Source of the DNA: Candidatus Hermodarchaeota archaeon
Lineage (GTDB): Archaea > Asgardarchaeota > Lokiarchaeia > Sigyniarchaeales > SOKP01
Length of the DNA stretch: 64,000 nt
Assembly: GCA_048885925.1 (NCBI GenBank)
Contig: JBHLLG010000001.1
Coordinates: 131,105-195,104, forward strand
Reading direction: 5' to 3'
The notes beneath the pieces were generated by a model that was given only the letters and a program-made list of their open reading frames with translations, did no database searches and was not told where the DNA came from. Of this stretch, positions 9,821-50,260 are shown piece by piece. Each line of letters starts with the position of its first letter. The first letter of the stretch is position 1. Made by a program: the position numbers and the translations under genes.

Positions 9821-9827
9821 TTCATAA

Positions 9828-13188: not shown

Positions 13189-13200
13189 AATTTAGATTTT

Positions 13201-17200: not shown

Positions 17201-17201
17201 T

Positions 17202-17990: not shown

Positions 17991-18079
17991 GGTCTCATCA
18001 ATATTTAACTAGGATTCTATATTCAATCTCAATCTTTTAAGAGTTAAATAAAGATATTAAAAATATAAAAAAAAGTTAA

Positions 18080-20671: not shown

Positions 20672-20683
20672 ATAATTCAAAAA

Positions 20684-21076: not shown

Positions 21077-21207
21077 ATTTAAATGATAATTAAATGCTAA
21101 CTTAAATATTTACTTAATATTATTATCTTGTCATAATAATATATTATTATTTTATTTAGTTCTCCCTTTATAGAAAAATAATAAAATCTTAAGGTTTTTC
21201 TAATAAT

Positions 21208-22005: not shown

Positions 22006-22111
22006 AAGGTGATTATCAAAAATTTATAAATTTTGATACTTAAATTTTAATTGGACACTTTCAAAAAATATGATATCTAATCCAAATTAAAAAGTAAATT
22101 CGGAGAAAAAA

Positions 22112-22342
22112 ATGGTAAAAGTAAAGGACATTGAGAAGATTATGGATGATTTTATGATTGAAGCAGATGATAAATTTATTGATATCAAACGTTATCTTCT
22201 CAGCGAGTTTGATTGGAAAGTAGATCCTCATAAGAAATCACAATTTATGATTAGAGGCATTCCAATAGAAGATAATATGAAATTAAGTGATTTATTAAAA
22301 TCCTATTTACCTGATGAAGTGTTAACTCTTAGAGAAATTTAA
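22112..22342 (+). CDS. Small ubiquitin-like (beta-grasp) protein lacking C-terminal Gly-Gly
   Basis: 76 aa; FMIEADDKFIDIK and QFMIRGIPIEDNMKLSDL align by eye with ubiquitin LEVEPSDTIENVK and RLIFAGKQLEDGRTLSDY; ends LTLREI. Confidence 0.62.
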   Translation: MVKVKDIEKIMDDFMIEADDKFIDIKRYLLSEFDWKVDPHKKSQFMIRGIPIEDNMKLSDLLKSYLPDEVLTLREI

Positions 22343-22411
22343 AAATGGTAAATTAGCTTAACCTAATTTTTGATTAATAATTATTTTTGTTATAAATAAA
22401 GTAAATACATT

Positions 22412-27523: not shown

Positions 27524-27639
27524 TTAGAACTATCTCTAAAACTATGGAACTAACTTTGAATGAAAAATATTAAAGTAAAAGCAGAATAAAGAAATCTAAA
27601 TATCTTAAATAATTACCATCTTAATCTTGAATTATAATT

Positions 27640-27747
27640 AAATTTATTAAGTATAAAACGAAAGATTAATCAATATAAATTAGTATTCTATAGGGCAAAT
27701 TAAATAGATCCTATTTTAATTTACAAATTTAGTTTTTAATCTCTCAT
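27640..27747 (+). promoter_or_regulatory. Putative TATA-like box and conserved palindromic leader upstream of TPR-nitrilase copy 2
   Basis: AAATTTATTAAG at 27640; AGGGCAAATTAAATAGATCCTATTTTAA at 27692-27719, one mismatch to the copy 1 motif; both leaders end TCTCAT-ATG. Confidence 0.6.
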
Positions 27748-31584: not shown

Positions 31585-31717
31585 TTTTTACTTATTCTAA
31601 ATCTGTGATTATTTTATATAAAATATTTTAAACTTACACATCTAATATTAATTATTCTTAAAGATAAAAAAATGAAACCCAGAAAGCCAATATTTCTAAT
31701 ATATGATTAAAATATAA

Positions 31718-34700
31718 TTGAGGATGGTAAGAATCACTCAAGTTGAATTGTTAAATCGAGCAGAAGCAGAAGAAAAGAAGTATAATTTAAAAGAAGCAAT
31801 CAGATTATACAAACAGGTCTTAGAGAATTTTATAGATAAAGATGATTTGATAAAGGTTGCACAGATTAATGAAAAGATCGGAAATATTTACGTTTTAGCT
31901 ACTTTAACAGCTGATACTGAGAAAGAACTTACAGAAATGATAGATGATGCAGTAGAAGCATATGATAAAGCAATAAAGATATATACCGAAATGAATAATA
32001 AAGTAAAGGTCTTAGAATGCATGGCAGGACAATTTAAAGTCAAATCGGACAAAGGAATATCTCCTGAATATAGTAGAAAGCAATTACTTGACTCTTTTGA
32101 AAAATACATGGAATTAAGTGAAATCTATAATAAAGAAAATGATAATAAGAATTTATTAAGGATTTTAAGCCAAACTTCACTTACTTTAGCGTTGTTGTTA
32201 CAATGCTGTTATGATCCTATTGATTTTGAGGATTTATTCCAAAAAGGTGATGATATAGTCGAAAGAGGTTTGAATCTATCATATGAACTTGGATATAAAC
32301 AATATATAGGAAATTTCTTTTTTGTAGGAAATTTCATCATTGGTATTAAAACTTGGGTAACTTTTTCCAGAATAGATAAACTTTTCTGGAGAAATAGTGA
32401 ACATGAAAAATTACTAAATAAATTCCTTGATAGAAGTAATGAAGGGTTAAAGTTCATTGAAGAAAGTGATGATAAGTTCAATAAAGCTTTATTTTATCAT
32501 TTTATAGGTTCTATAAATTGCCAATTTGCAGCTAGGTTTATTCATGATGAGAAAGAACAAAAGGACCTTGCTGATAAAGGTATAAAATATTGCGAAGAAG
32601 CTTTAGACCTTATGAGAGAACTTAACTTTAAGCCATTTCTTATACATTATATATTTTGGTTAGATTATTTTCTTGGTATTTTAGGAAGGTACCAATATCT
32701 TCAAAAAAGAATATTAGGAGACATCACTGAAATTCAAGAAAAGGGTAAAGCTTATCAAAATATATTTTCATTTTGGGGTTTTCTGACTAATTTTTTATCA
32801 GCAGTATCTTATCAATTTTTTACTCAAAGAAGTTATTTGAAAACAGATTTAAGAAGAACTTATGCAAAGAAAGGAATTAAAGAAATAGAGGATGGATTAA
32901 AAAAACTAAATTTCGGACCATTTTTTTCATTATCATATCAGATTTTAACTAATCTATATTCCCAATTAGTTCATCTAACTCCTAAAAGAGAGAAACGTGA
33001 GAGTTTCATCGATAGTATGTTTAAAAGTGCATCTGAAGCTGAAAAAGCTGGTAAAATGTATAAAGCAGGAATGTCTAGAGCTGCTGGTTATATTTCATTA
33101 TACCGTGCTCATAAGACTTTATCTGATGTTTTAACAAATAAGGAAGAGAAAATTAAGAATTTATCAATTGCAATAGATGCAATTACGAATAATATTGAAT
33201 TTTCAGTTGAATCATATAGAGATTTCATTGCTGATAGGATGCATCTTGGATTATTGTATGAGGACTTAGCAATACTAACTAAACAAAAAGAACCCTTGTT
33301 TCAAGCAAGAGAACTATTTCTTCATTTAATAAAGGACACTAACCAGAAGGGTTATTATTACCACACTGCTGCTGCTTATGAATATTTAGCGCGTATTGAA
33401 GATAGATTAGGAAATCACCTAACATCCGCTCAACAATATGAAATGGCAAGTAATGCTCATCTAAAATCATTAGAAAAAGTTCAATTTAAACCATTAAAGG
33501 ATCGAATTAAGGAAAAGAGTGAGTATGATAAAGCGTGGAAATTAATTGAAAATGCTAAGGTTAATCACAAAAAAGAGGACCATTTAAAAGCAAAAGAAGA
33601 ATATGATATGGCTTGCGAAATCCTAAAGACTTTGTCGAAATATAGATATGAGGCTTCTTATTATTCATCTTGGGCATATTTAGAAGTTTCAGAAGATGCA
33701 AGCAAGAAAGAAGAACACCAAGTGGCAATTGATAAATATCAGGATACAAAAAACTGTTTTGAAAAATCAATAAATATATTAGAAGATACTTTAACACAGT
33801 CTTCTAACAAAATTGAGATAGAAAGAATAACTAAACTCAAAAAAGTAGCGAATGTTAGGATTAATTATTGTTTAGCCCGTATCAATCTTGAAAAGGCTAG
33901 AATTCTTCAAAAACAAAGCGATCATCTATCTGCTGCTGAGAATTTTGCTTTAGCGGCTTCTCAATTTAGAGATATTTGTACTATATTCAAAATTGAAAGG
34001 GAAAGAAAAGAATTAGAAGCAATTTATCATTTATGTAGAGCATGGGAAGGAATGGAACTTGCTGAAAATTATCAGGAACCTGAAAGATTTATAGAAGCCT
34101 CAAAACTATTTCTAAAAGCCAGCAATTTATTCATTGATAGTAAATTAAAGTTGTTAGCCTCTGGTAATTCGTCAGTTTGTTTAGCTTTAGAAAATGGCTG
34201 TAAGTTTGATGAATCGACTGATATGGGAAAAAAAGCAGATTATTATAAGAAAGTAAAAATGATGTTAAGAAAAGCATCTAGTTCATATGAAAAAGGTGGA
34301 TTTATCGTAGGGGCTGATTGGGCTTTAGGAACCACAATATACTTCGATGGTCTTTGGCACTTAATAAAAGCAGATGAAGAATTAGAACTTAATATTAGAA
34401 AAAAACAGTTAGAAGTGGGTTCTAAATATTTAAAATCAGCTGCGGAGATATTTGGAAAATCTGGATATAAAGAAAGACAAGAAGAAATTTATGAGAAATT
34501 AAATAGAATAGAAAGAGAAGAATTGATTTTGTATTCTGCTTTGAATACGATTAGCAACCCTGTAATCTCAAGAAGTACTGTTGGAATAGTTGCTCCTGCG
34601 TGTCCAATAGAATCAAGTTTATCACCAAAAATAAGTGAAATCAATCAATTAACCTTAGAAGCTACTGAGTTATCAGAAACCCAAGAAAAAGTAAAGAAAT

Positions 34701-35569
34701 ACAGTTTAAAATATAAAGACTTGTTAACTCAATATCCTAAAATACAAAGAAATGAATGCAGAATTGGAGTTGCTCAAATTGGATTATCTGAATCAGGAAA
34801 CATTTTAAAAGAATTCTTTAAAATAAAGAAGTTTGGATTATTAGGAATTAAGGAGGATATAATTAATTCACTCAGATCAACTTATAAAGAAATGATTGAA
34901 AGAGCCAATTCTGATAGAATTAATATTCTCGTTTTTCCAGAAATGATGATAGATCTAAATTATACTGAAATTATTGAGGATTTAATGAATTATTCAAAAG
35001 TTTACAATATGTATATTATTCCAGGATCTTATCACGATGAAAAATCTAAGAAAAATATTAGTGTAGTTATTGGTCCAGAAGGATTTCTTTGGGAACAAGA
35101 AAAACATATCCCTGCAACAATTCATATTGAAGGTAATAAAGTTAAAGAAGCAATTGATACAAGTTCTTATCCTAGAAATACAACTATATGTAATACTGAG
35201 TTTGGTAGAATTGCAATAGTTATCTGTCGGGACTTTCTTGATATGGATTTAAGAGTGGAATTGAAGAATTTTGAACCACCAGTGGATATTGTTATTAATC
35301 CTGCATTTACACCAGTTACAGCAGATTTCAAAGCAGCTCATTTTGATGCACGTAGATCCATCTATGCTTACTGTTTCTTTGCTAATGTTGCTGAATTTGG
35401 TGATTCGCTAATCTATACTCCCGAAAAAGACCGCACTGAAAGAAACATCCCAGCGAAGGAAGAAGGCTTAATATATAAAGATATTAATCTTTTCAAATTA
35501 CGTTCAGAGCGTAAAAAATGGGAAAAAGAGCAAAAGAAAGAATTGCAATTCATACAAAGTACCAGATAA
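31718..35569 (+). CDS. Giant TPR/SNAP-like solenoid-nitrilase fusion protein, copy 3
   Basis: Same architecture; LVFPEM / QEKHIP / ICRDF; start may be the ATG at 31724. Confidence 0.88.
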   Translation: MRMVRITQVELLNRAEAEEKKYNLKEAIRLYKQVLENFIDKDDLIKVAQINEKIGNIYVLATLTADTEKELTEMIDDAVEAYDKAIKIYTEMNNKVKVLECMAGQFKVKSDKGISPEYSRKQLLDSFEKYMELSEIYNKENDNKNLLRILSQTSLTLALLLQCCYDPIDFEDLFQKGDDIVERGLNLSYELGYKQYIGNFFFVGNFIIGIKTWVTFSRIDKLFWRNSEHEKLLNKFLDRSNEGLKFIEESDDKFNKALFYHFIGSINCQFAARFIHDEKEQKDLADKGIKYCEEALDLMRELNFKPFLIHYIFWLDYFLGILGRYQYLQKRILGDITEIQEKGKAYQNIFSFWGFLTNFLSAVSYQFFTQRSYLKTDLRRTYAKKGIKEIEDGLKKLNFGPFFSLSYQILTNLYSQLVHLTPKREKRESFIDSMFKSASEAEKAGKMYKAGMSRAAGYISLYRAHKTLSDVLTNKEEKIKNLSIAIDAITNNIEFSVESYRDFIADRMHLGLLYEDLAILTKQKEPLFQARELFLHLIKDTNQKGYYYHTAAAYEYLARIEDRLGNHLTSAQQYEMASNAHLKSLEKVQFKPLKDRIKEKSEYDKAWKLIENAKVNHKKEDHLKAKEEYDMACEILKTLSKYRYEASYYSSWAYLEVSEDASKKEEHQVAIDKYQDTKNCFEKSINILEDTLTQSSNKIEIERITKLKKVANVRINYCLARINLEKARILQKQSDHLSAAENFALAASQFRDICTIFKIERERKELEAIYHLCRAWEGMELAENYQEPERFIEASKLFLKASNLFIDSKLKLLASGNSSVCLALENGCKFDESTDMGKKADYYKKVKMMLRKASSSYEKGGFIVGADWALGTTIYFDGLWHLIKADEELELNIRKKQLEVGSKYLKSAAEIFGKSGYKERQEEIYEKLNRIEREELILYSALNTISNPVISRSTVGIVAPACPIESSLSPKISEINQLTLEATELSETQEKVKKYSLKYKDLLTQYPKIQRNECRIGVAQIGLSESGNILKEFFKIKKFGLLGIKEDIINSLRSTYKEMIERANSDRINILVFPEMMIDLNYTEIIEDLMNYSKVYNMYIIPGSYHDEKSKKNISVVIGPEGFLWEQEKHIPATIHIEGNKVKEAIDTSSYPRNTTICNTEFGRIAIVICRDFLDMDLRVELKNFEPPVDIVINPAFTPVTADFKAAHFDARRSIYAYCFFANVAEFGDSLIYTPEKDRTERNIPAKEEGLIYKDINLFKLRSERKKWEKEQKKELQFIQSTR

Positions 35570-35655
35570 GGTATTTTTTCAAGATAAATTTTAATAACAC
35601 AAAAAAATAATTAATGAATTAGTGAAATCAATAGCATTTCAAAAAAATCTTTAGC

Positions 35656-38600
35656 ATGATTGTCAAGAGTAACCAAGAAGAATCTTTAATTAAAGAAGCG
35701 AAAATTGAAGAAAAGAATTATAATTGGGAAAAGGCAGCAGCTTTGTATGAACAAGTGGCTAAAATATATTTAGATAGAGAAAAATTAAAAGATGCCGCAA
35801 ATATTTATATTAAACTAGGGGATATATGCATGCGAGCTATCTATGCATCAGAAATTAAAGAAGACTATTTAAATTGGAGTAAACAATCTTTTAAAGCATT
35901 TCAAAAGGCGGAGAGTCTTTTTATCCAGATTAATGATAAACTTCTGAGTGATGAATGTAAAGCTAGAGCACTTTCAGTAACAGGCTTTGTTATTACTTCA
36001 GTTGAAGAGGCGAGAAAAAATATAAAAAAATCAGTTGATATTCTTTTAGAACTTATTGAAAAATATTCAAAAGTAAATGATACTAAAAATTGGATAAGAT
36101 TGATAACCCTGATCATTGGGTCAATCAATTTATATGTATTTATAACTTCGGATCCTTCTGAATTGGAGTATTATAGCCATTTGGCTCGTACTTTAATAGA
36201 AAAGGCTTGGACTCGTCTAAAAGAAATTGATACAATCGAAATTAGAAGTAGCCTATTGTTTGGTGAGAATATATTAATGCTTAATATTAATAGATGGACG
36301 GAACTTACTTATGGAGATAAAAATCAAGAAAAAGTTAACAAAAAATTTTTAAAGAGATGTGAAGAAACACTAAATTTAGTGCAAGCTAGTGATGATGAGA
36401 TTAATCATAGCTATCTTGGAGAAATTTATGGTATAACGGGTTTCGTATATTGTATATTTGGGAGTTTACTTGTTGAAGAGAAAAAGGAACGAGTAAAGTT
36501 AGCTGAAAAAGGATTTGAGTTATTGGAAAAATCTGTTGCTTTTTTTAAAAATTCAAGAAATATTCTTGGAGCTATATCATATACATATAGTACAGATTAT
36601 CATGCTGGTCTTTTTGGTAGATTTGAATACCTACAGAAGAGAATTCTAAATGATATGCGAGAAGTACAGAAATTAGATAAAATCTTCGATAATTTATATG
36701 CTGGGCTTTATAGTTTTATGGATTTCATACCTATTGATTATTATAACCAATTTGCTAGCAGAAGTTTTTTAAGGGCGGATACAAGGAAGTCTTATGCTAA
36801 ATTAGGAATTAAATATGCTAATAAATCATTGCAAAGACTTGCGTTTGGTCCTTATATTATATTTATTTATCAGTATTTAACTCATTTTTATTCACAACTA
36901 ACTCTTCTTGCTTTAGAAGATGAACCTCAGCAGGACTATATTCAAAAAATGTTGTATTATGCTAATAAGGCTGAAAATCTCTCAAAAGGATATAAAGGAG
37001 GAAATGTAAGATCAGCTGGTTTTACTTCGCTTTACAGAGCATATAAGACTCTTGCTGATATTTCTAAAGATAAGGATGAAAAAGTTAAAAATTTAGAACT
37101 TGCAGTAGAAGCTGCTAAAAAAAATATTAAGTATTCCATTGAATCTTATAGAATTTTTTTAGCAATTCAAATACGTTTGGCTTTAATTTATGAGGAATTA
37201 GGCATCCTAACTACCGAAGAAAAACCCCTAATACAAGCAAGAGATTTATTTCTACGTATAGTTATTGATTCTTCAGAAAAAGGTTATTATTATTATACAG
37301 CTGCTTGTTATGAATATATTGCTCGTTTAGAAGATCGCTTAGGAAATCACATAGTCTCTGCTGAATATTATCAAAAAGCACAGGAAGCACATGAAGACTC
37401 ATTAACTTCAATTAAATATAAGCCATTGAAAGAAAGAACTAATGAAAAGATAAAGTATACCAAAGCTTGGAATTTTATTGAAAAGGCCAAAGCATATCAT
37501 AAAAGGGAAAATCATATAAAGGCTAAAGAAAATTATGAAGAAGCAGCTGAGATCTTAAAAACCTTACCCAATTTTAATTATGAAGCAGCTTATTATGGCG
37601 CTTGGATAATTTTAGAAGAAGCTGAGAATCTTAGTAAACAGGAAAAATATGAAGATGCTATAAAGAACTATAAAAAAACAAAAGATCTTTTTGATAATGC
37701 CATTTTTACAATTAGATTTATAAGGAAAAATGTTAGAAGGTCAAAAGAATTAAAAAAACTTGAGAAAGTAGCGAAAGTAAGGATGAATCATTGTTCTGCT
37801 AGAATAAATCTTGATGAGGCAAGGATTTTAGGGAAAAAGGGGGAACATATTGCTGCTGCCGAAAAATTTGGTAATGCTGCGACTCAATTTAGAGACATTT
37901 GTATATTGTATAAAATTAAAAGAGAACGAGCAGAAATAGAAGCAATATATCATCTCTGTAAAGCTTGGGAAAGTATGGAATTAGCTGAAAATTATGAGGA
38001 TCCAGAAAAGTTTACAGAAGCAGCAAATTTATTTTCAAATGCTAGCGATTATTTTACACAAAGTAAATTAAAGTTCCTAGCTGAAGGAAATTCTAATTTT
38101 TGTTTAGCTCTTGAAGAAGGATGCAAATTTGATCAATCTCATGATATAGAAGTTAAAACAAGCTTGTATCCAAAAATTAAGTCAATTCTCAGAAATGCAG
38201 CAAATTTATATGAAAAGGGCGGTTTTAAAAATGGGGCGGATTGGGCACTTGCGACATCAACTTATTTTGACGCAGCATGGTATTTGATTCAAGCCGACAA
38301 TGAATTAAATGTAAATAAAAAACGGGAATTTTTAAATTATGGATCAAATTATTTAAAGTCATCAGCAGAACTATTTCATAAAGCGGGATATAAAGATAAG
38401 GAAAAAGAAGTATTAGAAAGATTAGATAGAGTAATTAAGGAAGAAAAAATACTCTTCTCTGCCTTAAGCACAATTTATAAACCTTCTGTTTCAAGAAGTA
38501 TAGAAGGCATTATTACACCTTCATGTCCGATAGAAACAAGCCAATCACCACGGATTGGTGAAATTCAACAATATTCTGAAGAAGTAAGTACTTTTTTAGA

Positions 38601-39492
38601 AAGAGATAGTAAAACAAATAAATACGAAATAGAATATAGGGATTTGTTAAAAAATTATTCAAAGTCACCAAGGAATCAGTGTAGAGTTGGTATTGCTCAG
38701 ATTGGTATTTCCAATTCTGGTGATATAATGAATGAGTTTTATGAGGAAAAACCTAAAGGTCTTTTAACGCTCAAAGAAGAAAAAGTTAGTGATATTGAGT
38801 CAAAAGTGAAGCAAATGATTGATAAAGCAAATGAAGAAAGTGTTAACATTTTACTATTTCCAGAAATGGCAGTAGATCTCAAATATAAGCAATTTCTAGA
38901 AGATATTTTAAATCTCGCTAAAAAATATGGAATGTATATTATTCCTGGATCATATCACAATATTGAAACAAAAAGTAATATTAGCTTAGTTTTTGGCCCT
39001 GAAGGAATACTCTGGCAACAAGAAAAGTATATTCCTGCCATCATAAGCCTAGGGAGCGGCAGATTTAAAGAGGGAATAGAAAAATCTGTTTTACCTCATA
39101 AAACAATAGTATGTAATACAGAATATGGGAGAATAGCTATTGCAATTTGCCGGGATTTTCTTGACATGGATTTAAGGGTAGAATTAAAGAATTTTGAACC
39201 ACCGATTGATATTATATTAAATCCGGCTTTTACACCAGTTACAGCTGATTTTAAAGCGGTTCATTTTGATGCGCGTAGATCTATTTATGCTTATACTTTT
39301 TTTGCTAATATTGCTGATTATGGCAACTCCCTTATTTATACACCAGAAAAGGAGCGTGTTGAGAGAAATGTTCCTTCAAAACAGGAAGATTTAATCTATA
39401 AAGATGTAGATCTTTTTAGGCTTCGGTCAGAACGTAAAAAATGGGAAGAAAAACAGAAAAAAGAAAAATCTTTTATTCAAAGTACAAGATAA
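35656..39492 (+). CDS. Giant TPR/SNAP-like solenoid-nitrilase fusion protein, copy 4
   Basis: Same architecture; LLFPEM / QEKYIP / ICRDF. Confidence 0.88.
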   Translation: MIVKSNQEESLIKEAKIEEKNYNWEKAAALYEQVAKIYLDREKLKDAANIYIKLGDICMRAIYASEIKEDYLNWSKQSFKAFQKAESLFIQINDKLLSDECKARALSVTGFVITSVEEARKNIKKSVDILLELIEKYSKVNDTKNWIRLITLIIGSINLYVFITSDPSELEYYSHLARTLIEKAWTRLKEIDTIEIRSSLLFGENILMLNINRWTELTYGDKNQEKVNKKFLKRCEETLNLVQASDDEINHSYLGEIYGITGFVYCIFGSLLVEEKKERVKLAEKGFELLEKSVAFFKNSRNILGAISYTYSTDYHAGLFGRFEYLQKRILNDMREVQKLDKIFDNLYAGLYSFMDFIPIDYYNQFASRSFLRADTRKSYAKLGIKYANKSLQRLAFGPYIIFIYQYLTHFYSQLTLLALEDEPQQDYIQKMLYYANKAENLSKGYKGGNVRSAGFTSLYRAYKTLADISKDKDEKVKNLELAVEAAKKNIKYSIESYRIFLAIQIRLALIYEELGILTTEEKPLIQARDLFLRIVIDSSEKGYYYYTAACYEYIARLEDRLGNHIVSAEYYQKAQEAHEDSLTSIKYKPLKERTNEKIKYTKAWNFIEKAKAYHKRENHIKAKENYEEAAEILKTLPNFNYEAAYYGAWIILEEAENLSKQEKYEDAIKNYKKTKDLFDNAIFTIRFIRKNVRRSKELKKLEKVAKVRMNHCSARINLDEARILGKKGEHIAAAEKFGNAATQFRDICILYKIKRERAEIEAIYHLCKAWESMELAENYEDPEKFTEAANLFSNASDYFTQSKLKFLAEGNSNFCLALEEGCKFDQSHDIEVKTSLYPKIKSILRNAANLYEKGGFKNGADWALATSTYFDAAWYLIQADNELNVNKKREFLNYGSNYLKSSAELFHKAGYKDKEKEVLERLDRVIKEEKILFSALSTIYKPSVSRSIEGIITPSCPIETSQSPRIGEIQQYSEEVSTFLERDSKTNKYEIEYRDLLKNYSKSPRNQCRVGIAQIGISNSGDIMNEFYEEKPKGLLTLKEEKVSDIESKVKQMIDKANEESVNILLFPEMAVDLKYKQFLEDILNLAKKYGMYIIPGSYHNIETKSNISLVFGPEGILWQQEKYIPAIISLGSGRFKEGIEKSVLPHKTIVCNTEYGRIAIAICRDFLDMDLRVELKNFEPPIDIILNPAFTPVTADFKAVHFDARRSIYAYTFFANIADYGNSLIYTPEKERVERNVPSKQEDLIYKDVDLFRLRSERKKWEEKQKKEKSFIQSTR

Positions 39493-39599
39493 ATTTAAAA
39501 AAAATAAATTATAAAAATAATTCATTTAATAGTAGAGGAATAGATTAGTAAACTTAGGTAAAAAATATTCATATAGAACTCATTCTGAAATGGTAAAAA

Positions 39600-42500
39600 A
39601 TGAAAGGAGAGAGAGAGGAGACTTTATTAGAAATCGCTCGAAATGAAGAGAAAAATTATAATTTAGAAAAAGCTGCTAAATTATATGAAGAAGCAGCAGA
39701 GAGCTTTTTAAATAGGAATTTGATGGAGAAAGCTGCGAAGGCTTTCAGTCAACTTGGAGGGGTTTATTCAAAGGCTCTAGAAACAGCAATATCATCAGAA
39801 ACTTTTTTTAGTACCTGTAAAAATGGTATTAAAGCGTTTGAAATGGCAAAAAAACTTTATAAAAGAATTGAATCGAAACCTAACATCTTGGAATGTGAAG
39901 CAAATACATTCTACATTAATGGATTGATTTCAGGCTCAATAGCAGAGGTAAAAGAAAATTTTAACAAATCATACGAGATATTTTTAGAATCTAGTAAGTT
40001 TTTTGAAGAGGAGGGAAACAAAGAAGCTACGGCAAGAACTTTAAGTAATGTATTAGAGATATTACTTTTCAACGTATTCAATTGTGAACATTCATTAGAG
40101 GGTAAAGAAATCCTCGAGAAATCTTCTAAATTAGAAGAAAAATCTTGGAATTTTTCAAAGGAAATTAAGGCTATTGAATATCTTGGTCTGGGATTTCATC
40201 TTGGAACAACCACTAATCTCTGGCGAATTCTTAGTACAAATTTTCAAAGGGATGATCGACTCTACAAATATATCAAAAATATTTTCTTGAAATTTGAGGA
40301 GCTTTCAGAGCTAGCTAGGAATTGGGATGACCCTAGAGTCCTTGGGATGGTATATTACGCAGGTGGAAATGCGTATTGTGCATATGCTACTCATTATGCT
40401 AAAGATGAAAAAGAACAGGGAGTTTATATTGATAAAGGTATAGACTTACTTGAACAATCATTAATTTTCAATGATCGCGCAAAGAACTCATTAATGAAAA
40501 TAGTCACGATTTTTTTTATAAATTGGTGGGCATATTTCAATCGGAGGCTTAAATATGTCCAGAAAAGAATTTTTAAAGATGTTAATGAAATCTTAAAATT
40601 AGGAAAAGCATATGAGGACTCTCCTACATTTATATATTTCTTAGCGAATTTACTGCCTGCTTTTTATTATGCAAATATTTCTCAAATGACAATGTTTACC
40701 ACACGCCAACGAATATCTTATGCTAAAAAGGGGGTTGAATACGCTAAAAAAGCGTTAAAATTTTTCGAAGTCCTGCCTATCTCTATTTGGTCACTTTTAA
40801 TGCTAATTTATTCATATTCACAACTAATTGTTCTCACATCATCAAGAGAAGAACAAGAAGAATATTCTAAGGAGATATTAAATTGTGCTAAAAAAGCAAA
40901 AATCATCGGTGAAAAGTTTGAAGGAGGATTGGCTCGAGGATTTAGTTATAATTCCCTTTACAGAGCTTATAAAACTCTTGCTGATGTTACCGACGACAAG
41001 GAAAGCAAACTCAAAATGTTATTAACAGCCGCAAAAGCTTCTAAAGATTACATGATGCATACTTGGGAATCAACGACCGGAAATCTCACAATGCAATTGC
41101 GGTTAGGTCTACTTTATGAAGAGATTAGTATTATTGCGAATAATTCTGAATACTTGGAGCAATCAAAAGAATTGTTTATCCAAGTTGTTGAGGAAAGCAT
41201 CAAGCAAGGTTATTTTTATTATGCAGCTGCAGCGAATGAATATATTGCCCGAATAGAGGATCGATTAGGTAACCACTCAGCTTCAGCAGATTATTACGAA
41301 AAAACATTTGAAACTCATAAAGATTCATTAAAGTATGTAATGTACAAACCACTTATATTAAGAATTAATGAAAAAATCAATTATGCCTATGCTTGGAGTC
41401 TTATTGAAAGAAGTAAAACGTTTCATAAAAGAGAAAATCACCTTCAAGCTAAAAAATTTTACGAAAAGGCTTACGACATTCTCAACAATTTATCAAGATA
41501 CAAATACGAGGCTGATTATTATTCTGCATGGATATTGCTAGAGGAAGCAGAACACTTTAGTAAGCAAGAGATGCATGAAATAGCAACAGAAAAATATGAG
41601 CTGACAATAAAAGCCTTTGAAAATGCTACGGAATCTTTAAATAAAGCTTTAAAGGAATCAAAAAATAAGAGAAAAAATGAACGAATTGGTAAACTTATAA
41701 AATTAGCTGAAGTAAGAATAAAGCATTGTTTGGCTAGAATCAATGTTGAAAAAGCGAGAATATTAAGTAAACAAGGTGAATATAATGCTGCTGCGGAACA
41801 TTTTGCCTTAGCAGCAGCAGAGTTCAGGGAGGTATGCAACAGTTTTACAGTCGAAAAAGAACGGGAGGAATTAGAGGCGGGTTATTATCTGTGCAGAGCG
41901 TGGGAAAGTATGGAATTTGCAGAATATTATAAAGATTCAAACAGGTTCGCAGAAGCATCAGCCTTATTCATAAAAGCTAAAAATCTTTTCTCTTCAAATA
42001 TAATGAAATCATTAGCATCTGGAAATTCTGCTTTTTGTCAGGCATTAGAAATTGGTTGTAAGTTTGATGAGCTAACTGCAGCAAAAAATAAAGCTGAGTT
42101 ATATCCTAAAATCAAAGTTATGCTTAGAAATGCAGCTTCTTCATATAGAAAAGGTGGATTTGAAAATGGAGCTGATTGGGCTCTAGCAACCTCCTCTTAT
42201 TTTGATGCAGCATGGTACTTAATCAGAGCTGATGAAGAATTAAGACTTGAAGAGAAAAAGAAACTTCTTGATATTGGATCTGAATTTCTTTCATCAGCTT
42301 CAAATTTATTTGGAAAAGCAGGTTATAAAGAGAAGGAACAAGAGGTTTTTAAACAGCTGGAAATGGTTAAAAAAGAAGAAAGTATAATAATTTCAGCTTT
42401 AAATGCGATAAAAAAACCATCCGTTTCTGGAAGTACTATTGGAATTACCGCTCCAGCCTGTCCTTTAGAAACAAGTTTATCAACGAATTTAAGTGAAATT

Positions 42501-42812
42501 CGTGAATTGTCTGATGCCAATCTAGATGAAGATGATCTTGGAAAAAAGCCCTCATCTCATGTTAAGTTGAAGATAAAGGAAAGTGGTATAAAAACTGGTT
42601 TATCGGTTGAAGAACAAAGAGAACTAGAGAAATTGGAATATGAACTTAAAATAGAAGAACAAAAATTTATCTGTGTTGTCCATAAAGGACAAATTGTAGG
42701 GACCGTATATATTTGCCCAAATTGTAGAACTTGTTATTGTTTAACGTGCGCTTACTCTTTAAAAGCAAATGGAGAAAAATGCTGGACATGTAATAATGAA
42801 ATAAAACCATAA
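39600..42812 (+). CDS. Fifth paralog: same TPR/SNAP-like solenoid with a C-terminal RING-like zinc finger instead of the nitrilase
   Basis: Shares ARIEDRLGNH, YLCRAWESME, GADWALATSSYFDA and GITAPACPLETS; ends CVVH-x10-CPNC-x4-CLTC-x10-CWTC. Confidence 0.86.
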   Translation: MKGEREETLLEIARNEEKNYNLEKAAKLYEEAAESFLNRNLMEKAAKAFSQLGGVYSKALETAISSETFFSTCKNGIKAFEMAKKLYKRIESKPNILECEANTFYINGLISGSIAEVKENFNKSYEIFLESSKFFEEEGNKEATARTLSNVLEILLFNVFNCEHSLEGKEILEKSSKLEEKSWNFSKEIKAIEYLGLGFHLGTTTNLWRILSTNFQRDDRLYKYIKNIFLKFEELSELARNWDDPRVLGMVYYAGGNAYCAYATHYAKDEKEQGVYIDKGIDLLEQSLIFNDRAKNSLMKIVTIFFINWWAYFNRRLKYVQKRIFKDVNEILKLGKAYEDSPTFIYFLANLLPAFYYANISQMTMFTTRQRISYAKKGVEYAKKALKFFEVLPISIWSLLMLIYSYSQLIVLTSSREEQEEYSKEILNCAKKAKIIGEKFEGGLARGFSYNSLYRAYKTLADVTDDKESKLKMLLTAAKASKDYMMHTWESTTGNLTMQLRLGLLYEEISIIANNSEYLEQSKELFIQVVEESIKQGYFYYAAAANEYIARIEDRLGNHSASADYYEKTFETHKDSLKYVMYKPLILRINEKINYAYAWSLIERSKTFHKRENHLQAKKFYEKAYDILNNLSRYKYEADYYSAWILLEEAEHFSKQEMHEIATEKYELTIKAFENATESLNKALKESKNKRKNERIGKLIKLAEVRIKHCLARINVEKARILSKQGEYNAAAEHFALAAAEFREVCNSFTVEKEREELEAGYYLCRAWESMEFAEYYKDSNRFAEASALFIKAKNLFSSNIMKSLASGNSAFCQALEIGCKFDELTAAKNKAELYPKIKVMLRNAASSYRKGGFENGADWALATSSYFDAAWYLIRADEELRLEEKKKLLDIGSEFLSSASNLFGKAGYKEKEQEVFKQLEMVKKEESIIISALNAIKKPSVSGSTIGITAPACPLETSLSTNLSEIRELSDANLDEDDLGKKPSSHVKLKIKESGIKTGLSVEEQRELEKLEYELKIEEQKFICVVHKGQIVGTVYICPNCRTCYCLTCAYSLKANGEKCWTCNNEIKP

Positions 42813-42845: not shown

Positions 42846-43736
42846 TTAAATAAAAGCAGCCATATCTTTGCATTTCTCAGCGATTCTTATCATATTCTTT
42901 ATCTTATCTTTATCTTCATAATCTAACTTAATCAATAAAGAATTTGCTTCTTCTACTAATTTATCTTTTCTTAACCAAGCTTTGTGTGCTAGGACAAGAT
43001 CTTTTTTTAAGTAAGCATTCATAATATTATTGAAATATTGATTGATCTCTAAGAAGAATTCTTTAACATTCTCATTAACTTGTAAATCTCTTAAAATTTT
43101 ACCAATCTCCTCTATTTTTTCACAAAACATTCTATAGTCCATAGCTTCAAGTGGCGTAAAATCTGTATCTTCTGAAACATACATCCCAGTTCTCAGATAT
43201 GTTCTGATATGTGTTACCAATATAAAGTAAAATTTTCTTAACTGATCAAAATTATATTTCAAATCATCAACTCGGTCTGCTATTACATTTTCCAACATAT
43301 CAGCAACTAAATATAATAGGCGTTGAATAAGTTTCTTTGTAGGGATATTTTTATAACCAAAATTTTGTATTACTAGTCTTTGTCGTTGATCTTCAATTAT
43401 TTCTGTATTCGGAAGTCCATTCACTAACCATCTTATTTCACCTCTCAGATCGTTATCAATCTCTTTATCTGAGATTACAACTATATTGGTTTGACCTGAC
43501 AGACAGTTTTTTACAATTTCTCTTGCAATAAATGGACTTGAATGAAGTATTAGTTCTTCACTCGGATTTATATCCTCTTGCTCATGTTTCGGTGAGATAT
43601 TTAATGAACCATCATGACGAATGGTTATTGCTACGGGTGATTTGGGACTTAATTTAAAATTTTCAATCCACTTTTTAGGTAAACTCACAAAGAACGAGCC
43701 ACTTATTTTTTGTAATTTTCTAAAAATTGTATCCAT
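42846..43736 (-). CDS. Archaeal phosphate-uptake regulator family protein (AbrB-like N-terminus, PhoU-like helical domains)
   Basis: RKLQKISGSFFVSLPKKW..DGSLNISP AbrB/SpoVT motif; helical C-terminus ending RIAEKCKDMA. Confidence 0.8.
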   Translation of the reverse strand: MDTIFRKLQKISGSFFVSLPKKWIENFKLSPKSPVAITIRHDGSLNISPKHEQEDINPSEELILHSSPFIAREIVKNCLSGQTNIVVISDKEIDNDLRGEIRWLVNGLPNTEIIEDQRQRLVIQNFGYKNIPTKKLIQRLLYLVADMLENVIADRVDDLKYNFDQLRKFYFILVTHIRTYLRTGMYVSEDTDFTPLEAMDYRMFCEKIEEIGKILRDLQVNENVKEFFLEINQYFNNIMNAYLKKDLVLAHKAWLRKDKLVEEANSLLIKLDYEDKDKIKNMIRIAEKCKDMAAFI

Positions 43737-46498: not shown

Positions 46499-47602
46499 AT
46501 GGCGAAAAAAAATTTATCCAATAAATCATCAACTTCAAAATCGCCTTTAAAAGAGTCTACCCCGAAGAATACAACAACAAATAAACCCGTATCTAAGAAG
46601 ACAGTTCAAAAAACAAAAAAGCCTATGGATAACCTGGCAATATTGCAGAATTCACCTTATTTAAAACAACCTGAACAGACTCAAGCAATTAAAAAAAAAA
46701 GTACATTAAAGGAACTTTTTGAGAGGAGATTACTATCTCAAAAAGAAGAAAAGATGGAAATTGTATTATCTGGTCAATACCAAGAGGCCCTCGATTTAAT
46801 TTATGAAGCAGATGCCTCAAATTTGTATCCCATTTTAGTAGGACCTCCAGGAATTGGTAAAACAACTTTATGTAGGTATTATGCGCAATCAAGAGCTGAA
46901 ATTACTGGAAATGACTCATTCGAGTGGATTACTTTTGATGAATCAACTAAACCAGCTCACTTAGTTGGGTCTTTTGACCCTGCAACTACGATACAGAAAG
47001 GCTTTTCTTTCGAAGCTTTTAATCCTGGTCCTTTAATAAAAGCAATGTTAAATGGTGGATTATTTCTTGCGAATGAGGTGAATCGTGCTACTGAATATAC
47101 CCAAAATTCTCTTCTAGAACCACTAGAAGAGAGAACTCTTTCAATTCCTCATATAGGAAGAATAAAGGCATCACATGGATTTTTTTTTATAGGAGCAATG
47201 AATCCTTCAGAATTAGTAGGAACACATAGATTAGGGGAAGCATTAAAGGATCGATTTAATGTTTGGATTGAACTAGATTATCCAGATAAGAAGACAGAGA
47301 TGAAAATAATTGAACATAACAATCCATATTACAAAGTTGATGAGAGTACACTTGAAAAGATCTATCTTATAATAAATCGAACTCGAACTCACCATCAAAT
47401 TCAAACACCAGCAAGTTTGAGAAGTGGAATTGCCTTAGCACGTCTTACAGGTATAGAACAAAAAAAAACAAAAAATGAACCGAATAAAATTCTACGAGAT
47501 ATAGCAGGTAAAGTATTATTTGGAGCAATACAAACAAAACCGGGAGTTAAAGTAAATGATGTAGTTAACAATATAATCTCTCAAGTAGTTGGCTCTACAT
47601 GA
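46499..47602 (+). CDS. MoxR-family AAA+ ATPase with variant Walker B
   Basis: Walker A GPPGIGKT; GPL..GGLFLANEVNR; QNSLL; GAMNP; EALKDRF; low-complexity K/S/T N-terminal tail. Confidence 0.9.
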   Translation: MAKKNLSNKSSTSKSPLKESTPKNTTTNKPVSKKTVQKTKKPMDNLAILQNSPYLKQPEQTQAIKKKSTLKELFERRLLSQKEEKMEIVLSGQYQEALDLIYEADASNLYPILVGPPGIGKTTLCRYYAQSRAEITGNDSFEWITFDESTKPAHLVGSFDPATTIQKGFSFEAFNPGPLIKAMLNGGLFLANEVNRATEYTQNSLLEPLEERTLSIPHIGRIKASHGFFFIGAMNPSELVGTHRLGEALKDRFNVWIELDYPDKKTEMKIIEHNNPYYKVDESTLEKIYLIINRTRTHHQIQTPASLRSGIALARLTGIEQKKTKNEPNKILRDIAGKVLFGAIQTKPGVKVNDVVNNIISQVVGST

Positions 47603-47638
47603 AATAGAATAAAAATTGAAATATTTAAGGTAAATAAA

Positions 47639-50260
47639 TTGATTTTTCCCGAGGACCCAATTTGGTTTTCTCTTAAACTCATAACTGCATTAAGAAAGCA
47701 TGAAAAATGTGTTTATAAACCCTCAATTAGGCAAGCAATTGCTATCTGCAAATTGATATTAGCTCGATTTTTAAATAGAGGTATGTGTGAAGCTGAAGAC
47801 TTTATAGAAATTGCTGTAGTTTCAAGTCCTTTAGAAAATCAAGATTTAGCACGAAAAATTGCCAAAGAATTATTAACATATTCAGAATCTTCTGAACTAA
47901 AAACATCAAGAGATTTAAATGAATCTGATATCCTAAGTTCAATGAAAGCAAAAGACATGGTTGACGAGTTAGGAATTGATTTAGATGAATTAGATGAGAT
48001 TTATGATGATTTAGAATTCCTAAGGAATAATTTTAATGAAATAGAGAATCTAGATTTGGATTCGTTGATCGAATCTACATTTGATAACTTTTTTGATAAA
48101 TTTAGAAATGAACTTCAAGAAGATCCGTACAAAACTGCGTTAGATGTAATTGAGAGGAATGCAATTGCAAATTATGATAAATTTAAAGATTTGGAATCGT
48201 TTTTAGATTACGCGAAAGATCTTTTAAGGAAAAAGTTTGACCATTTAGAACCGGAAGATATTCCTTTCGCTGAAAAATTAGGAATATTAGAAGATATCAT
48301 TAAAAATTCTAATTTAGCTAGAGAAAGAATTCTTTCTCAACTTATAAAGGAACAAACTGCGGGAAAAAACACTAATTCAAAACTAAAACACCAAAATAAA
48401 AATACAGGAAATTTAGACTTAGCTTTAGCCTTTAAAGATACTTTTCAAAATAATTTTTATGACGCACTAAATATGGCTGAATTTGCACTAAAGACAAAAG
48501 CTTTAAGTGTTAATAATCAAAATGCTCTAAAAAGTCTAATAAAACAAGGTTTATGTCAGTCAAATATCAATTTAGGTCATCTATTAAATTCAACTAAAAT
48601 AGTAGGCTCAAATTTAGGATTAGACAAACAAGAATTAAATAAAATCGTCAGTAATAGCTTAAATTTACCATTCAAAGATACATATCAATATGTTAAAGAA
48701 TATGACCAATATTTTGGGGGGAATTTATGTGAAGAATATTTAGGAAAGATTAATACTGATTTCGATAATATAACTAATCAATCTAATTTGGGAGATATAA
48801 GAAATCATTTAATTAGGAATCCTACGAAGACCCCTTCATGGCGAAAATTATTGTCCAATGTAATTGATAAAGAAATCCAATCAATTAAAAAGGATTTTAA
48901 TCAGAATGATGTACTAAATGCCCAAATGAAGAATCTTACAGATATATTGATCGCTCAGAAGGATAATTGTACAGATTTTGTATGTAGATCTCAATTTAAT
49001 AATAAAATTCAAGATATTGTAAATCAAACTACAGAATTAGCAGTAAGTAAAGAAAATTTGAGAAATTATGTAAAAAATTTTAACGAAATGGGCTTTTTGC
49101 CACATTTAGATTCAATAAAAAAAGCGGGAAAAAGATTAAATATGACTGAAGCGGAGATTCTTAGCTTAGTCGAAGCAGACTTCAAATATTTTAAACAAAT
49201 GGTTGAAGAAAGAAGTACCAATTATCAAGGTTATAGAGATTACCTAAAACAATTGAAGCTTTCTCCTCAACAAGTTGATCAAGTTGTAAGATCCGCTTTA
49301 GGAAATCTCCCTCCACAAACTACAAATTTAGAAGCATTAAGTGCGTTAAATGAAAGATTTATGTCCCAAGTTTTAAATACTGCTGAGCAAATGGGGGATC
49401 AAGCTCTTGATATGGCTTTTTCTTCTTTGGGAGCTGGAAGTGGATTAGATCTACTTGAACAATGGTTTTTTTCAAGACATAACATATCAGTGAAAGTTAA
49501 AAGAAAACTGAAAGAAATAATAAAACACATCATGATCGATTTAGGTATTAGATCTGCAAATTCACTTATTGGGTCAGCAAATTCGGGTCCGATTGTAGAA
49601 AATATTGTAATACCTTATACACCGGGTGATGATTTTGAGTTAATAGATTTAGAAGAGACAGTAAGTAACCTTTTAGAGGGAGGAAAAACTGTAGAAACGA
49701 TTACAAATGATGATTTTCTAGTCTCAAAAACAACACAAGGCCTTCGTTGTCTTGTAATGGAATTAGATATAAGTGGCAGTATGACAGGACATAAATTATC
49801 CCAAATGGCACTTTGTGCAACTATGCTTGTCTATGCTTTCAAACCAGAAGAATTATCTCTTACATTCTTCGAATCAAATACTCATAGAATTAAGGATTTG
49901 GATCAGGAAATTGAATTGGAGAAAGTTGTTGATGAGCTGCTAGATATTACTGCAAGAGGCGGAACTTGCATTAATTCTGCTCTTAAGTGGGCAAATCATC
50001 AATTTGAAAAAAAGGCAAGGTCAAAGCACAAGTTGAATATTCTTTTTACAGATGCAGATGTATTTGACTTTAAAAATAGTATGCTGGAACTAAAAAAAGT
50101 GAGTGAAAAAGATGTGAAATTTGTAATGGTTGTTCCGAAATTTGGATTTTCTCCTGTTATGGCAAAAAAAATGGTAGATGAAGCAAATGGAGTACTTTTA
50201 ACCTTAAATCAGTGGAGAGATTTTCCAAAATTGATCTCTGAAATTATTACTAACCAATAA
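47639..50260 (+). CDS. VWA-domain protein with N-terminal AAA-lid-like segment and long helical middle
   Basis: MIDAS DISGS, GGT, FTDA; pre-VWA motif YTPGDD..IDLEETV; N-terminal KPSIRQAIA. Confidence 0.87.
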   Translation: MIFPEDPIWFSLKLITALRKHEKCVYKPSIRQAIAICKLILARFLNRGMCEAEDFIEIAVVSSPLENQDLARKIAKELLTYSESSELKTSRDLNESDILSSMKAKDMVDELGIDLDELDEIYDDLEFLRNNFNEIENLDLDSLIESTFDNFFDKFRNELQEDPYKTALDVIERNAIANYDKFKDLESFLDYAKDLLRKKFDHLEPEDIPFAEKLGILEDIIKNSNLARERILSQLIKEQTAGKNTNSKLKHQNKNTGNLDLALAFKDTFQNNFYDALNMAEFALKTKALSVNNQNALKSLIKQGLCQSNINLGHLLNSTKIVGSNLGLDKQELNKIVSNSLNLPFKDTYQYVKEYDQYFGGNLCEEYLGKINTDFDNITNQSNLGDIRNHLIRNPTKTPSWRKLLSNVIDKEIQSIKKDFNQNDVLNAQMKNLTDILIAQKDNCTDFVCRSQFNNKIQDIVNQTTELAVSKENLRNYVKNFNEMGFLPHLDSIKKAGKRLNMTEAEILSLVEADFKYFKQMVEERSTNYQGYRDYLKQLKLSPQQVDQVVRSALGNLPPQTTNLEALSALNERFMSQVLNTAEQMGDQALDMAFSSLGAGSGLDLLEQWFFSRHNISVKVKRKLKEIIKHIMIDLGIRSANSLIGSANSGPIVENIVIPYTPGDDFELIDLEETVSNLLEGGKTVETITNDDFLVSKTTQGLRCLVMELDISGSMTGHKLSQMALCATMLVYAFKPEELSLTFFESNTHRIKDLDQEIELEKVVDELLDITARGGTCINSALKWANHQFEKKARSKHKLNILFTDADVFDFKNSMLELKKVSEKDVKFVMVVPKFGFSPVMAKKMVDEANGVLLTLNQWRDFPKLISEIITNQ

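Follow-up and report, generated by a model that had tools for sequence, protein, structure and literature searches.

Within a 64,000-nucleotide stretch of a Candidatus Hermodarchaeota archaeon genome (the window; G000:C1:131105-195104, from a genome of 3.9 Mb with about 30% G+C), a tandem row of five plus-strand open reading frames (ORFs) at positions 23684-42812 encodes alpha-solenoid paralogues, and the fifth of these, copy 5 (protein P0001), ends in a RING-type zinc finger where copies 1 to 4 end in a nitrilase-superfamily domain. Copy 5 is a real feature, a RING-type finger on a solenoid with swappable tails that is tied to a dedicated ubiquitin-like protein (Ubl) system. We read it, with a probability of about 0.55, as an adaptor resembling a ubiquitin ligase (E3), in which a RING output on the shared solenoid would recruit a conjugating enzyme (E2) charged with the Ubl. 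The analysis shows the architecture of copy 5, the RING-type fold of its model, the conservation of the finger family, the exchange of tails on the solenoid, and the gene neighborhoods of the family; binding of zinc and of an E2, any ligase activity, and the target are inferred.

Copies 2 to 5 are 46 to 57% identical to copy 1. Copy 5 aligns with copies 1 to 4 from residue 1 to about residue 965, with divergence following GITAPACPLETSLS; the last motif shared by all five copies is GITAPACPLETS (copy 5 residues about 948-959), beyond which copy 5 is unrelated. An earlier reading of the DNA from its letters alone (the original prediction) had held that homology ends at this point and that the nitrilase is replaced in copy 5, and both statements were borne out. 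The CN_hydrolase family PF00795 matches all four of copies 1 to 4 over residues about 1050-1260, with E values of 1.4e-6 to 5e-5 at or above the gathering score (copy 1, E 1.4e-6, residues 1051-1259), while a Pfam scan of P0001 returned no PF00795 match and found only TPR_12 and SNAP. Membership of copies 1 to 4 in the nitrilase superfamily is also seen in their catalytic motifs: the Lys and Cys of EQEKHIP and ICRD in copy 1 align with RKIHLF and GICYD of Nit2 (2w1v), and the nitrilase copies contain an FPE motif that is a candidate for the triad Glu. We take these Glu (of FPE), Lys, and Cys residues to be the members of the nitrilase catalytic triad. Copy 5 lacks all of these nitrilase features.

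The full-length AlphaFold2 model of copy 5 (mc66b2727c957, built with 28 orthologues) has a mean predicted local distance difference test (pLDDT) score of 84, and its solenoid is unbroken over residues 1-938, with block pLDDT values mostly between 80 and 97. Compared with solved folds by Foldseek, the model matches the IFT-A TPR subunit, Ctr9, Ski3, and TTC7 at template modeling (TM) scores of 0.15 to 0.35, and the modeled likeness to long eukaryotic TPR scaffolds appears generic. Inside the disordered linker that follows lies a conserved linear motif (see the table), in which S943, S945, G948, P952, C954, P955, and E957 are invariant in the 28 orthologues. It is the final stretch common to all five copies and marks the swap junction; it could be a recombination junction, a processing site, or a docking peptide. 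Copies with a nitrilase tail and copies with a finger tail alike retain the motif (columns 945-975 of alignment A1).

The last 48 residues of copy 5 carry the motif C-x2-H-x10-C-x2-C-x4-C-x2-C-x10-C-x2-C, with the codon of the first Cys at 42672-42674; a charged spacer followed by an eight-ligand motif had been predicted, and spacing and coordinates proved exact. The presumed zinc ligands are C1025, H1028, C1039, C1042, C1047, C1050, C1061, and C1064, with a middle-pair spacing longer than the textbook C-x-H-x2-C. The pattern is not there by chance, since 10 of the 12 matches that it gives across six-frame ORFs of at least 50 residues in the 3.9-Mb genome belong to a single finger family. A search with copy 5 residues 850-1070 found 226 proteins, and among the best 120 of these the end of the solenoid, the linker, and the finger occur together in 28 clusters including P0001 (about 1045-1090 residues long, or fragments); the 27 further clusters share the whole architecture of copy 5 at 42 to 95% full-length identity. 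Close relatives found in this search bear Promethearchaeota and Lokiarchaeota labels, which puts the genome with the Asgard archaea. Across these 28 orthologue clusters the eight ligands and V1027, Y1046, L1054, and W1062 are invariant, and the finger as a whole is nearly invariant although full-length identity ranges so widely. The possibility that copy 5 is a pseudogene or a recent accident can be discarded, given the 28 clusters that keep its architecture and its nearly invariant finger.

The modeled fold, the profile comparison, and the Pfam matches together assign the finger to the RING superfamily, as a divergent binuclear member, and on this point the original prediction held up. An AlphaFold2 model of the last 81 residues shows a beta-beta-alpha layout with block-mean pLDDT values of 83 to 94 over the finger (blocks 31-80). 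Foldseek matches of this tail in the PDB are almost all RING domains (RNF38, RING1B, TRAF3, TRIM37, RNF8, TRAF6, RNF4, Mdm2, and RBBP6), with probabilities of 0.95 to 1.00, the ZZ domain of p62 being the main match outside the RINGs. VIA-align, run against 48,161 chains, gave 44 at Z of at least 5, and nearly all of the 50 matches listed are RING or U-box chains, headed by Nse1 (Z 7.1), RNF146 (6.5), 5gm6_o of the spliceosome Bact complex (6.4), RNF213 (6.2), GATOR2 (6.1), and TRIM37 (6.0), with the U-box of Prp19 (2bay) at 5.8. A profile built from 13 tails likewise found TRIM37 as its best PDB match (E 9.5e-4), with the Cys pairs in register, followed by RBBP6, synoviolin, p44 (1z60, E 0.0086), RNF4, and Mdm2. 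Among 149 members of the finger family, PF13920 (zf-C3HC4_3) is matched by 25 at E of 1e-3 or below, the best at E 3.5e-9 and 36.8 bits against a gathering score of 27; C1_2 is matched by 21 at the same threshold and Prok-RING_1 by 3. In a protein atlas the clusters nearest to the tail are archaeal proteins labeled 'Ring finger' (0.88-0.91), which serve as leads only. The fold matches suggest that the finger would coordinate two zinc ions in a cross-brace. The helix that precedes it, residues 1003-1015, is conserved with the finger in paralogous tails, and the tail of an FG-GAP protein encoded on contig C120 is 58% identical.

V1027, L1054, and W1062 put hydrophobic residues at three RING positions for E2 contact, which we assume to be equivalent to the E2-contact positions of canonical RINGs. 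The original prediction had proposed E2 cofolding as a check, and a cofold of copy 5 residues 1012-1070 (28-row alignment) with an E2 of the type encoded on contig C41 (29-row alignment) passed, scoring 0.71 (runs 0.71, 0.61, and 0.71), whereas the best of three controls scored 0.00. The passing mark lets through 58 of 80 solved complexes and 2 of 110 mismatched pairs, counts that hold only roughly here because custom alignments were used. At least 84% of the contacts are common to the runs, and the partner's pLDDT is 83 or higher. The predicted interface, between helix 1 (residues 2-19) and residues 121-124 of the E2 and residues 1026-1030, 1049-1053, and 1062-1063 of the finger, is the canonical RING-E2 one in the model, and most of its residues are invariant or nearly so in both alignments. 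RING-E2 complexes have already been solved, so the pass may reflect likeness to known complexes rather than binding; it indicates likeness to, and compatibility with, RING-E2 complexes through a predicted interface.

The finger is not confined to copy 5. At least 14 other ORFs of the same genome have it, and at E below 1e-6 the tail matches at least 13 of the other ORFs; the carriers are FG-GAP propellers, right-handed beta-helices, TPR arrays, and proteins of 340-410 residues without a known domain. In these paralogues ligand 2 is Cys in most, His in the subgroup of copy 5, and Asp once; the second pair is C-x2-C or C-x-C; and ligand 5 is His in a single paralogue. When 1.84 billion representatives were searched with a profile, 1166 clusters came up at E of 1e-3 or below, of which 965 already appear at 1e-10 or below, so the family is sharply bounded. 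The motif is present in 147 of the best 150 of these 1166 matches, each time with Trp following ligand 7. Of 399 genomes sampled from the phylum, 116 have the family (E of 1e-8 or below), including 108 of the 133 genomes of the family to which the window's genome belongs, all 4 of a sister family, and only 3 elsewhere, with up to at least 14 matches per genome. The family is an expanded one, and a single order of Asgard archaea accounts for most of it. Two of its members have two fingers in one chain, P0002 (1655 residues, beta-helix/Big_7) at about residues 1362 and 1576 and P0003 (412 residues) at about residues 257 and 345.

Genes for ubiquitin-like tagging are present in the genome of copy 5, which encodes Ubls as well as UQ_con E2 enzymes on contigs C4, C40, and C41, each E2 gene adjoining a ThiF-family gene resembling an activating enzyme (E1); the same E2 family search was positive in 0 of 14 control prokaryotes. 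On contig C41 the genes in order are those for a 344-residue finger protein, a 151-residue protein, a DUF998 protein, and a Ras-like GTPase, followed by an 887-residue protein that joins an AAA_22-like NTPase to the C-terminal part of a copy 5-type solenoid and the same nitrilase, and then by a JAB peptidase, a 294-residue E1, a 188-residue E2, and, in convergent orientation, an 86-residue Ubl with faint beta-grasp matches whose C terminus reads RVIGG-NL (across loci, RVIGG plus 0 to 2 residues). The cassette is syntenic in genomes G014 and G231, and in all three genomes nitrilase-solenoid genes directly adjoin JAB, E1, E2, and Ubl; in G231 a 525-residue finger protein and a solenoid-finger gene also lie within about 4 kb of it. 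Of 134 genomes in the window's family, 69 have the C41-type E2. At all 30 E2 loci fetched there is a GG-ended Ubl (one broken by a stop), with a finger gene at most 1.5 kb from the E2 gene and tail to tail with it at 13 and at most 7 kb away at 24, four of the six misses being bounded by contig ends; the genomes are related, and these counts therefore reflect conserved synteny rather than independent events. A second Ubl paralogue, 65% identical to the first, lies 1.5 kb from another finger gene on contig C71. This adjacency of the finger family to a ubiquitin-like tagging gene set in related genomes suggests that the finger probably recruits the tagging enzyme. The original prediction had named, as an outcome that would count against it, a generic tail on many unrelated proteins without a functional tie to the array, and this is half borne out. 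The finger does sit on many unrelated scaffolds, but there is a tie, in that genes for fingers, for Ubl-E2-E1-JAB, and for the NTPase-solenoid-nitrilase protein are neighbors in many related genomes.

C41 stops (at 23607) just after the Ubl gene, at a position where relatives have a finger gene of roughly 350 codons. Contig C120 (G000:C120:1-1007) starts inside a gene of this kind, whose 3' part it carries on the minus strand, so the two contigs may be neighbors. A second and more canonical ubiquitin locus (G000:C4:78001-91100, L061, positions 2467-9029) encodes two Ubl-containing proteins, a winged helix-turn-helix protein, ubiquitin (110 residues), E1 (411 residues), E2 (175 residues), and JAB (276 residues), as well as a 385-residue protein with a faint zf-RING_16 match (E 0.053).

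The solenoid had been proposed to be a modular platform with exchangeable outputs, and the tails of its relatives agree with this. Split by projection from the BLAST alignment, the best 120 of the 226 proteins carry nitrilase tails in 71 cases, fingers in 28, TIR domains in 10 (9 clustered plus P0204; Pfam TIR_2, E 3.2e-17), metallophosphoesterases in 4 (Metallophos, E 1.8e-12), a tail of about 140 residues and unknown type in 3, a 231-residue tail of unknown type in 1, and truncated ends in 3, proportions that are biased toward the finger because the list is ranked by likeness to copy 5. On a quick maximum likelihood tree of the solenoid core (residues 500-938; 118 of 124 rows, the 6 with fewer than 400 aligned residues being dropped), the tail types interleave, which argues that solenoid tails are exchangeable. 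The RING label requires 11 changes on this tree, at least 8 of them forced by well-supported branches. The clade of copy 5 is sister to two nitrilase proteins with an SH-like approximate likelihood ratio test (SH-aLRT) value of 100, and copy 4 of the window clusters with RING-tailed P0171, P0173, and P0175 from other genomes with a value of 99. By sequence, the interleaving would come either from many tail swaps or from recombination that homogenized the solenoids of neighboring paralogues, and the linker motif would be the junction either way. A single ancient swap is ruled out by the forced label changes, a pattern that tandem gene conversion could mimic. At a locus of genome G210 (G210:C53:6000-25900, L059, positions 9720-16879) that is syntenic with window positions 19913-23512 (methyltransferase, TauE, methyltransferase), a single solenoid-finger gene stands in place of the window's five paralogues, so the finger copy does not depend on adjacent nitrilase copies. 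Genome G220, of another species (G220:C82:58000-76003, L058, positions 5534-18004), has one solenoid-nitrilase gene and two tandem solenoid-finger genes, the second cut by the contig end.

Features of the array and of the C41 cassette. Coordinates are those of the window unless a contig is named.
Feature	Coordinates	Strand	Evidence
Copy 1, TPR-like alpha-solenoid with C-terminal CN_hydrolase domain (nitrilase superfamily), 1279 residues	23684-27523	+	PF00795, PADLOC
Copy 2, solenoid-nitrilase, 1278 residues	27748-31584	+	Pfam, alignment to paralogues
Copy 3, solenoid-nitrilase, 1283 residues	31718-35569	+	Pfam, alignment to paralogues
Copy 4, solenoid-nitrilase, 1278 residues	35656-39492	+	Pfam, alignment to paralogues
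Copy 5 (P0001), solenoid with RING-type finger, 1070 residues	39600-42812	+	ORF, alignment, AlphaFold2 model
Copy 5 alpha-solenoid, residues 1-938, 38 helices, TPR-like hairpins	39600-42413	+	AlphaFold2 model
Copy 5 charged disordered linker, residues 939-1002	42414-42605	+	pLDDT 26-29
Conserved linear motif S-x-S-x2-G-I-x-A-P-A-C-P-L-E-T-S inside the linker	42426-42479	+	conservation in orthologues and copies 1-4
Helix preceding the finger, residues 1003-1015	42606-42644	+	models, low to moderate confidence
RING-type binuclear zinc finger, residues 1023-1070	42666-42809	+	motif, fold, profile, conservation
C41 cassette, 887-residue protein to Ubl	G000:C41:12000-23607 (L047), 6198-11390		

If copy 5 is such an E3-like adaptor, it would work as a single chain. 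The solenoid of about 940 residues, common to the nitrilase, TIR, and phosphoesterase paralogues, would presumably bind the same kind of partner or ligand as in those proteins, and the 64-residue flexible linker with its short helix would tether the finger to it. The finger, its eight ligands presumably holding zinc in a cross-brace, would most likely dock an E2 charged with a Ubl through the loop after ligand 1 (V-V-H-K-G), the central helix, and the loop after ligand 7 (with the invariant W1062). A target held by the solenoid, possibly the nitrilase-bearing paralogues, would then be tagged, with copy 5 acting as the ligase, and the likely machinery would be the lineage's own cassette of Ubl, E2, short E1, and JAB peptidase.

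A broader picture is in our view rather unlikely to be correct as a whole: the lineage would run an immune-like or quality control system with one TPR solenoid as sensor and with an output that recombination at the linker motif has repeatedly switched between enzymes that kill or signal (nitrilase, TIR, phosphoesterase) and a RING E3, the RING tagging the target or the paralogues by means of the dedicated Ubl and E1-E2-JAB. As part of it, the many scaffold-RING genes may represent an archaeal expansion of substrate-specific E3s, like the eukaryotic TRIM- and NLR-type immune ligases and either older than or parallel to them. 

In PADLOC, the nitrilase domains match RTasNitrilase of the defense-associated reverse transcriptase (DRT) systems (E 1.9e-11 for copy 1, and 8.9e-15), and the JAB and E1 match the JAB and E1-E2 models of CBASS type (E 7.5e-8 and 9.3e-18). 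P0001 itself matched none of the families of PADLOC 2.0, and the E2 and the 344-residue finger protein were also without a match there. All nitrilase copies of the array end in an identical FIQSTR sequence (27503-27520, 31561-31581, 35549-35566, and 39472-39489), and a sixth copy with this ending is encoded on contig C7 (G000:C7:26660-30493). CBASS cyclases undergo C-terminal conjugation, and the FIQSTR end beside an E1-E2-JAB system recalls this by analogy.

Several observations weigh against recruitment of an E2 by copy 5. No E1, E2, or Ubl gene lies inside the window, the cassette being on contig C41, and the neighborhood counts lack independence, the genomes behind them being related. The solenoid-finger gene is patchy: 9 of the 399 genomes sampled from the phylum have it, and these belong to a single family (7 of 52 others in the window's genus, 1 of 42 in a second one). 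The finger of copy 5 itself falls below every Pfam RING threshold, the tail alone giving only subthreshold matches (C1_4, E 0.22; Rtf2 RING, 0.068; Prok-RING_1, 7.9); the Foldseek E values are weak (0.025-0.13), and all VIA-align Z scores are below 8, in the range that the tool calls common; a domain only some 50 residues long would be expected to score modestly. Many active RING E3s have a basic residue, the 'linchpin', after the last ligand. In copy 5 this residue is N1065, and across the 147 motif-bearing members the position is occupied by N in 61, E in 44, D in 29, S in 4, and other residues in 9, with R or K in none, so that the basic linchpin of an active RING E3 is missing from all 147. 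Finally, RING-like fingers that end eukaryotic solenoids, those of GATOR2, the SEA complex, IFT-A, and alpha-COP, are among the structural matches, and such fingers serve mainly as assembly joints.

This last point leads to the alternative that we take most seriously, a tentative one with a modest chance of being right, in which the zinc finger has a structural or assembly role and recruits no E2. It would bind fingers of other chains, or solenoids, and so form hetero-oligomers with, for example, copies 1 to 4, and copy 5 would be a noncatalytic regulator, cap, or decoy of the nitrilase complex. Chains of joint type are indeed matched (GATOR2 7uhy_D, Z 6.1; SEA 8adl_A, 5.8; alpha-COP 3mv2_A, 4.9; Nse1, 7.1; and IFT-A 8fgw_A), the lack of a basic linchpin throughout the family fits, many repeat scaffolds (FG-GAP propeller, beta-helix, and TPR) carry the finger, and a helix precedes it as in dimeric RINGs such as RNF8, with which it aligns over 72 columns. 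The tight linkage of the family to the Ubl-E2-E1-JAB cassette, within 7 kb at 24 of 30 loci, speaks for the E2-recruiting adaptor instead, as does the cofold with its canonical interface of invariant residues on both sides; an assembly role is also compatible with an E2 role, neither excluding the other. Clearly less probable is a finger of C1, PHD, or ZZ type that reads a lipid, a modified peptide, or nucleic acid and thereby localizes the solenoid. It would account for the subthreshold family matches to C1_2 (the 21 of 149 members), C1_1, and PHD, for the ZZ matches in Foldseek, and for the paralogue with His at ligand 5, which gives it a C4HC3 pattern like PHD or RING-CH, but both structure searches are dominated by RING and U-box chains, more members match PF13920 (one of them above the gathering score), and neither the genomic linkage to E2 nor the cofold pass points to a reader.

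A shade more improbable still is the cascade suggested by the original prediction, in which the nitrilase copies deamidate the N-terminal Asn or Gln of a solenoid-held substrate that copy 5 then ubiquitylates, as in N-degron pathways. Nta1, the N-terminal amidase of eukaryotes, is a member of the nitrilase superfamily, a nitrilase and a RING stand on the same scaffold within one array, nitrilase-solenoid genes adjoin JAB-E1-E2-Ubl in the three genomes named above, and the p62 ZZ domain, an N-degron reader, is in the Foldseek list (34% identity over 41 columns, E 0.044). Set against this, the copy 5 tail has no Pfam ZZ or UBR match, the G210 locus has no nitrilase copy beside its solenoid-finger gene, the nitrilase is closest to the reverse transcriptase-associated nitrilase of DRT defense, and TIR, metallophosphoesterase, and unknown domains stand in its place on the scaffold in other proteins; this defense-type character and this interchangeability make N-degron logic less likely. 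The specific identity given to the finger in the original prediction, that of TFIIH p44/Ssl1, did not survive. A true p44/Ssl1 homologue, with a role in transcription or repair or with E3 activity of Ssl1 type, is very improbable. The C-x2-C-x4-C-x2-C spacing does resemble the p44 motif, but it is common to several RINGs. The 13-tail profile matches 5o85_B (E 0.012) as well as 1z60, with p44 fifth in the ranking behind TRIM37, RBBP6, and synoviolin; VIA-align finds 8ebs_E (Z 5.7), with 13 chains ranked above it; and PF07975 (C1_4), nominally the best Pfam match of the 50-residue tail, is insignificant at 12.2 bits against a cutoff of 28.9 and is absent from the 25 of 36 families listed for the 149 members. 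Nor were the other parts of p44 detected, Pfam finding no VWA or Ssl1 domain in copy 5, and the finger family is largely restricted to one Asgard order. Specific kinship with p44/Ssl1 is thus largely refuted.

Compared with canonical RING E3s (PF13920; TRIM37 3lrq, RBBP6 3ztg, RNF146 4qpl, and Mdm2), the finger shares eight ligands in four pairs, the beta-beta-alpha core, hydrophobic residues at the three E2-contact positions, a location C-terminal to a substrate-binding repeat domain, and a predicted canonical E2 interface. It differs from them in having His at ligand 2 in copy 5 (Cys in most paralogues, Asp in one) and Cys rather than His at ligand 4, a longer C-x2-C-x4-C middle, an invariant Trp after ligand 7, where Pro is usual, N, E, or D and never a basic residue at the linchpin, and an acidic strand motif, TEEEV-x-x-x-KEK, that precedes the finger. 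With p44/Ssl1 (PF07975; 1z60), whose binuclear finger is all-Cys, it shares the C-x2-C-x4-C-x2-C center, and it matches p44 weakly by profile and fold, but it is no closer to p44 than to many RINGs, its Pfam match is not significant, the other p44 domains are undetected, and the lineage spread is different. Long alpha-solenoids, with or without a propeller, that end in a RING-like finger are found in eukaryotic GATOR2/SEA, IFT-A, and alpha-COP (PMC4678705), with which no sequence kinship was shown, and the Asgard family, unlike those scaffolds, is tied to a dedicated E2 cassette. The neighborhoods recall archaeal ubiquitin operons that include a small RING-finger protein; PMC5654768 presents the E1/E2/RING E3 cascade of Caldiarchaeum subterraneum, and PMC6043591 the processing of a ubiquitin precursor by Rpn11. 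As in such operons, a Ubl whose GG is followed by a short tail is encoded near an E1, an E2, a peptidase of JAB/Rpn11 type, and RING-like proteins. Here, however, the finger does not stand alone as a small protein but forms the tail of large repeat scaffolds, its expansion reaches at least 14 copies in a genome, and its cassette is linked to an NTPase-solenoid-nitrilase gene.

There are also likenesses to the E1-E2-JAB defense modules of bacteria, among them Cap2/Cap3 of type II CBASS and the Bil and other ubiquitin-like defense operons (bioRxiv 10.1101/2023.09.26.559546, whose abstract names no RING-type partners). The JAB and E1 match CBASS-type models. The nitrilase matches the RTasNitrilase effectors of DRT systems, with TIR, nitrilase, and phosphoesterase tails exchanged on one scaffold. 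In contrast to the bacterial E1-E2-JAB modules, the E2 here is a separate UQ_con protein without a PADLOC match, and copy 5 has no such match either. To our knowledge, RING-type partners are absent from the bacterial E1-E2-JAB defense systems. Eukaryotic HOPS and CORVET provide a further parallel, their Vps11 and Vps18 subunits being repeat scaffolds that end in RING-like fingers.

A hallmark of regulation and immunity in eukaryotes is RING E3s that have substrate-binding repeats of their own. RING-finger domains have been listed among the eukaryotic signature proteins of Asgard archaea (PMC11291895), and RING-type E3 ligases appear among the alpha-solenoid clusters exclusive to Asgard archaea and eukaryotes (PMC13734099); the archaeal RINGs reported as reconstituted are only small stand-alone proteins of ubiquitin operons (PMC5654768). 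A full-text literature search returned no description of the finger family, of tail exchange on the solenoid, or of an archaeal nitrilase beside E1-E2-JAB, although supplements (e.g., that of PMC13734099) may list such clusters. Described here are a large and largely lineage-restricted RING-type family fused to solenoids, propellers, and beta-helices and the genomic link of this family to a complete Ubl-E2-E1-JAB cassette, and in the window the finger occupies a scaffold position held elsewhere by a nitrilase, TIR, or phosphoesterase domain. If the finger does recruit an E2, Asgard archaea would already have diversified substrate-specific E3s and would couple ubiquitin-like tagging to defense-type effectors.

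Convergent with copy 5 lies the gene for a 296-residue protein (42846-43736, minus strand) with an N-terminal AbrB/MazE-type domain (E 9.5e-6) and a remainder without an assigned family. Further downstream, at 46499-50260 and 50286-52631, a pair of genes encodes a MoxR-type AAA ATPase (367 residues) and an 873-residue VWA protein, and a 781-residue protein without a Pfam match comes after them.

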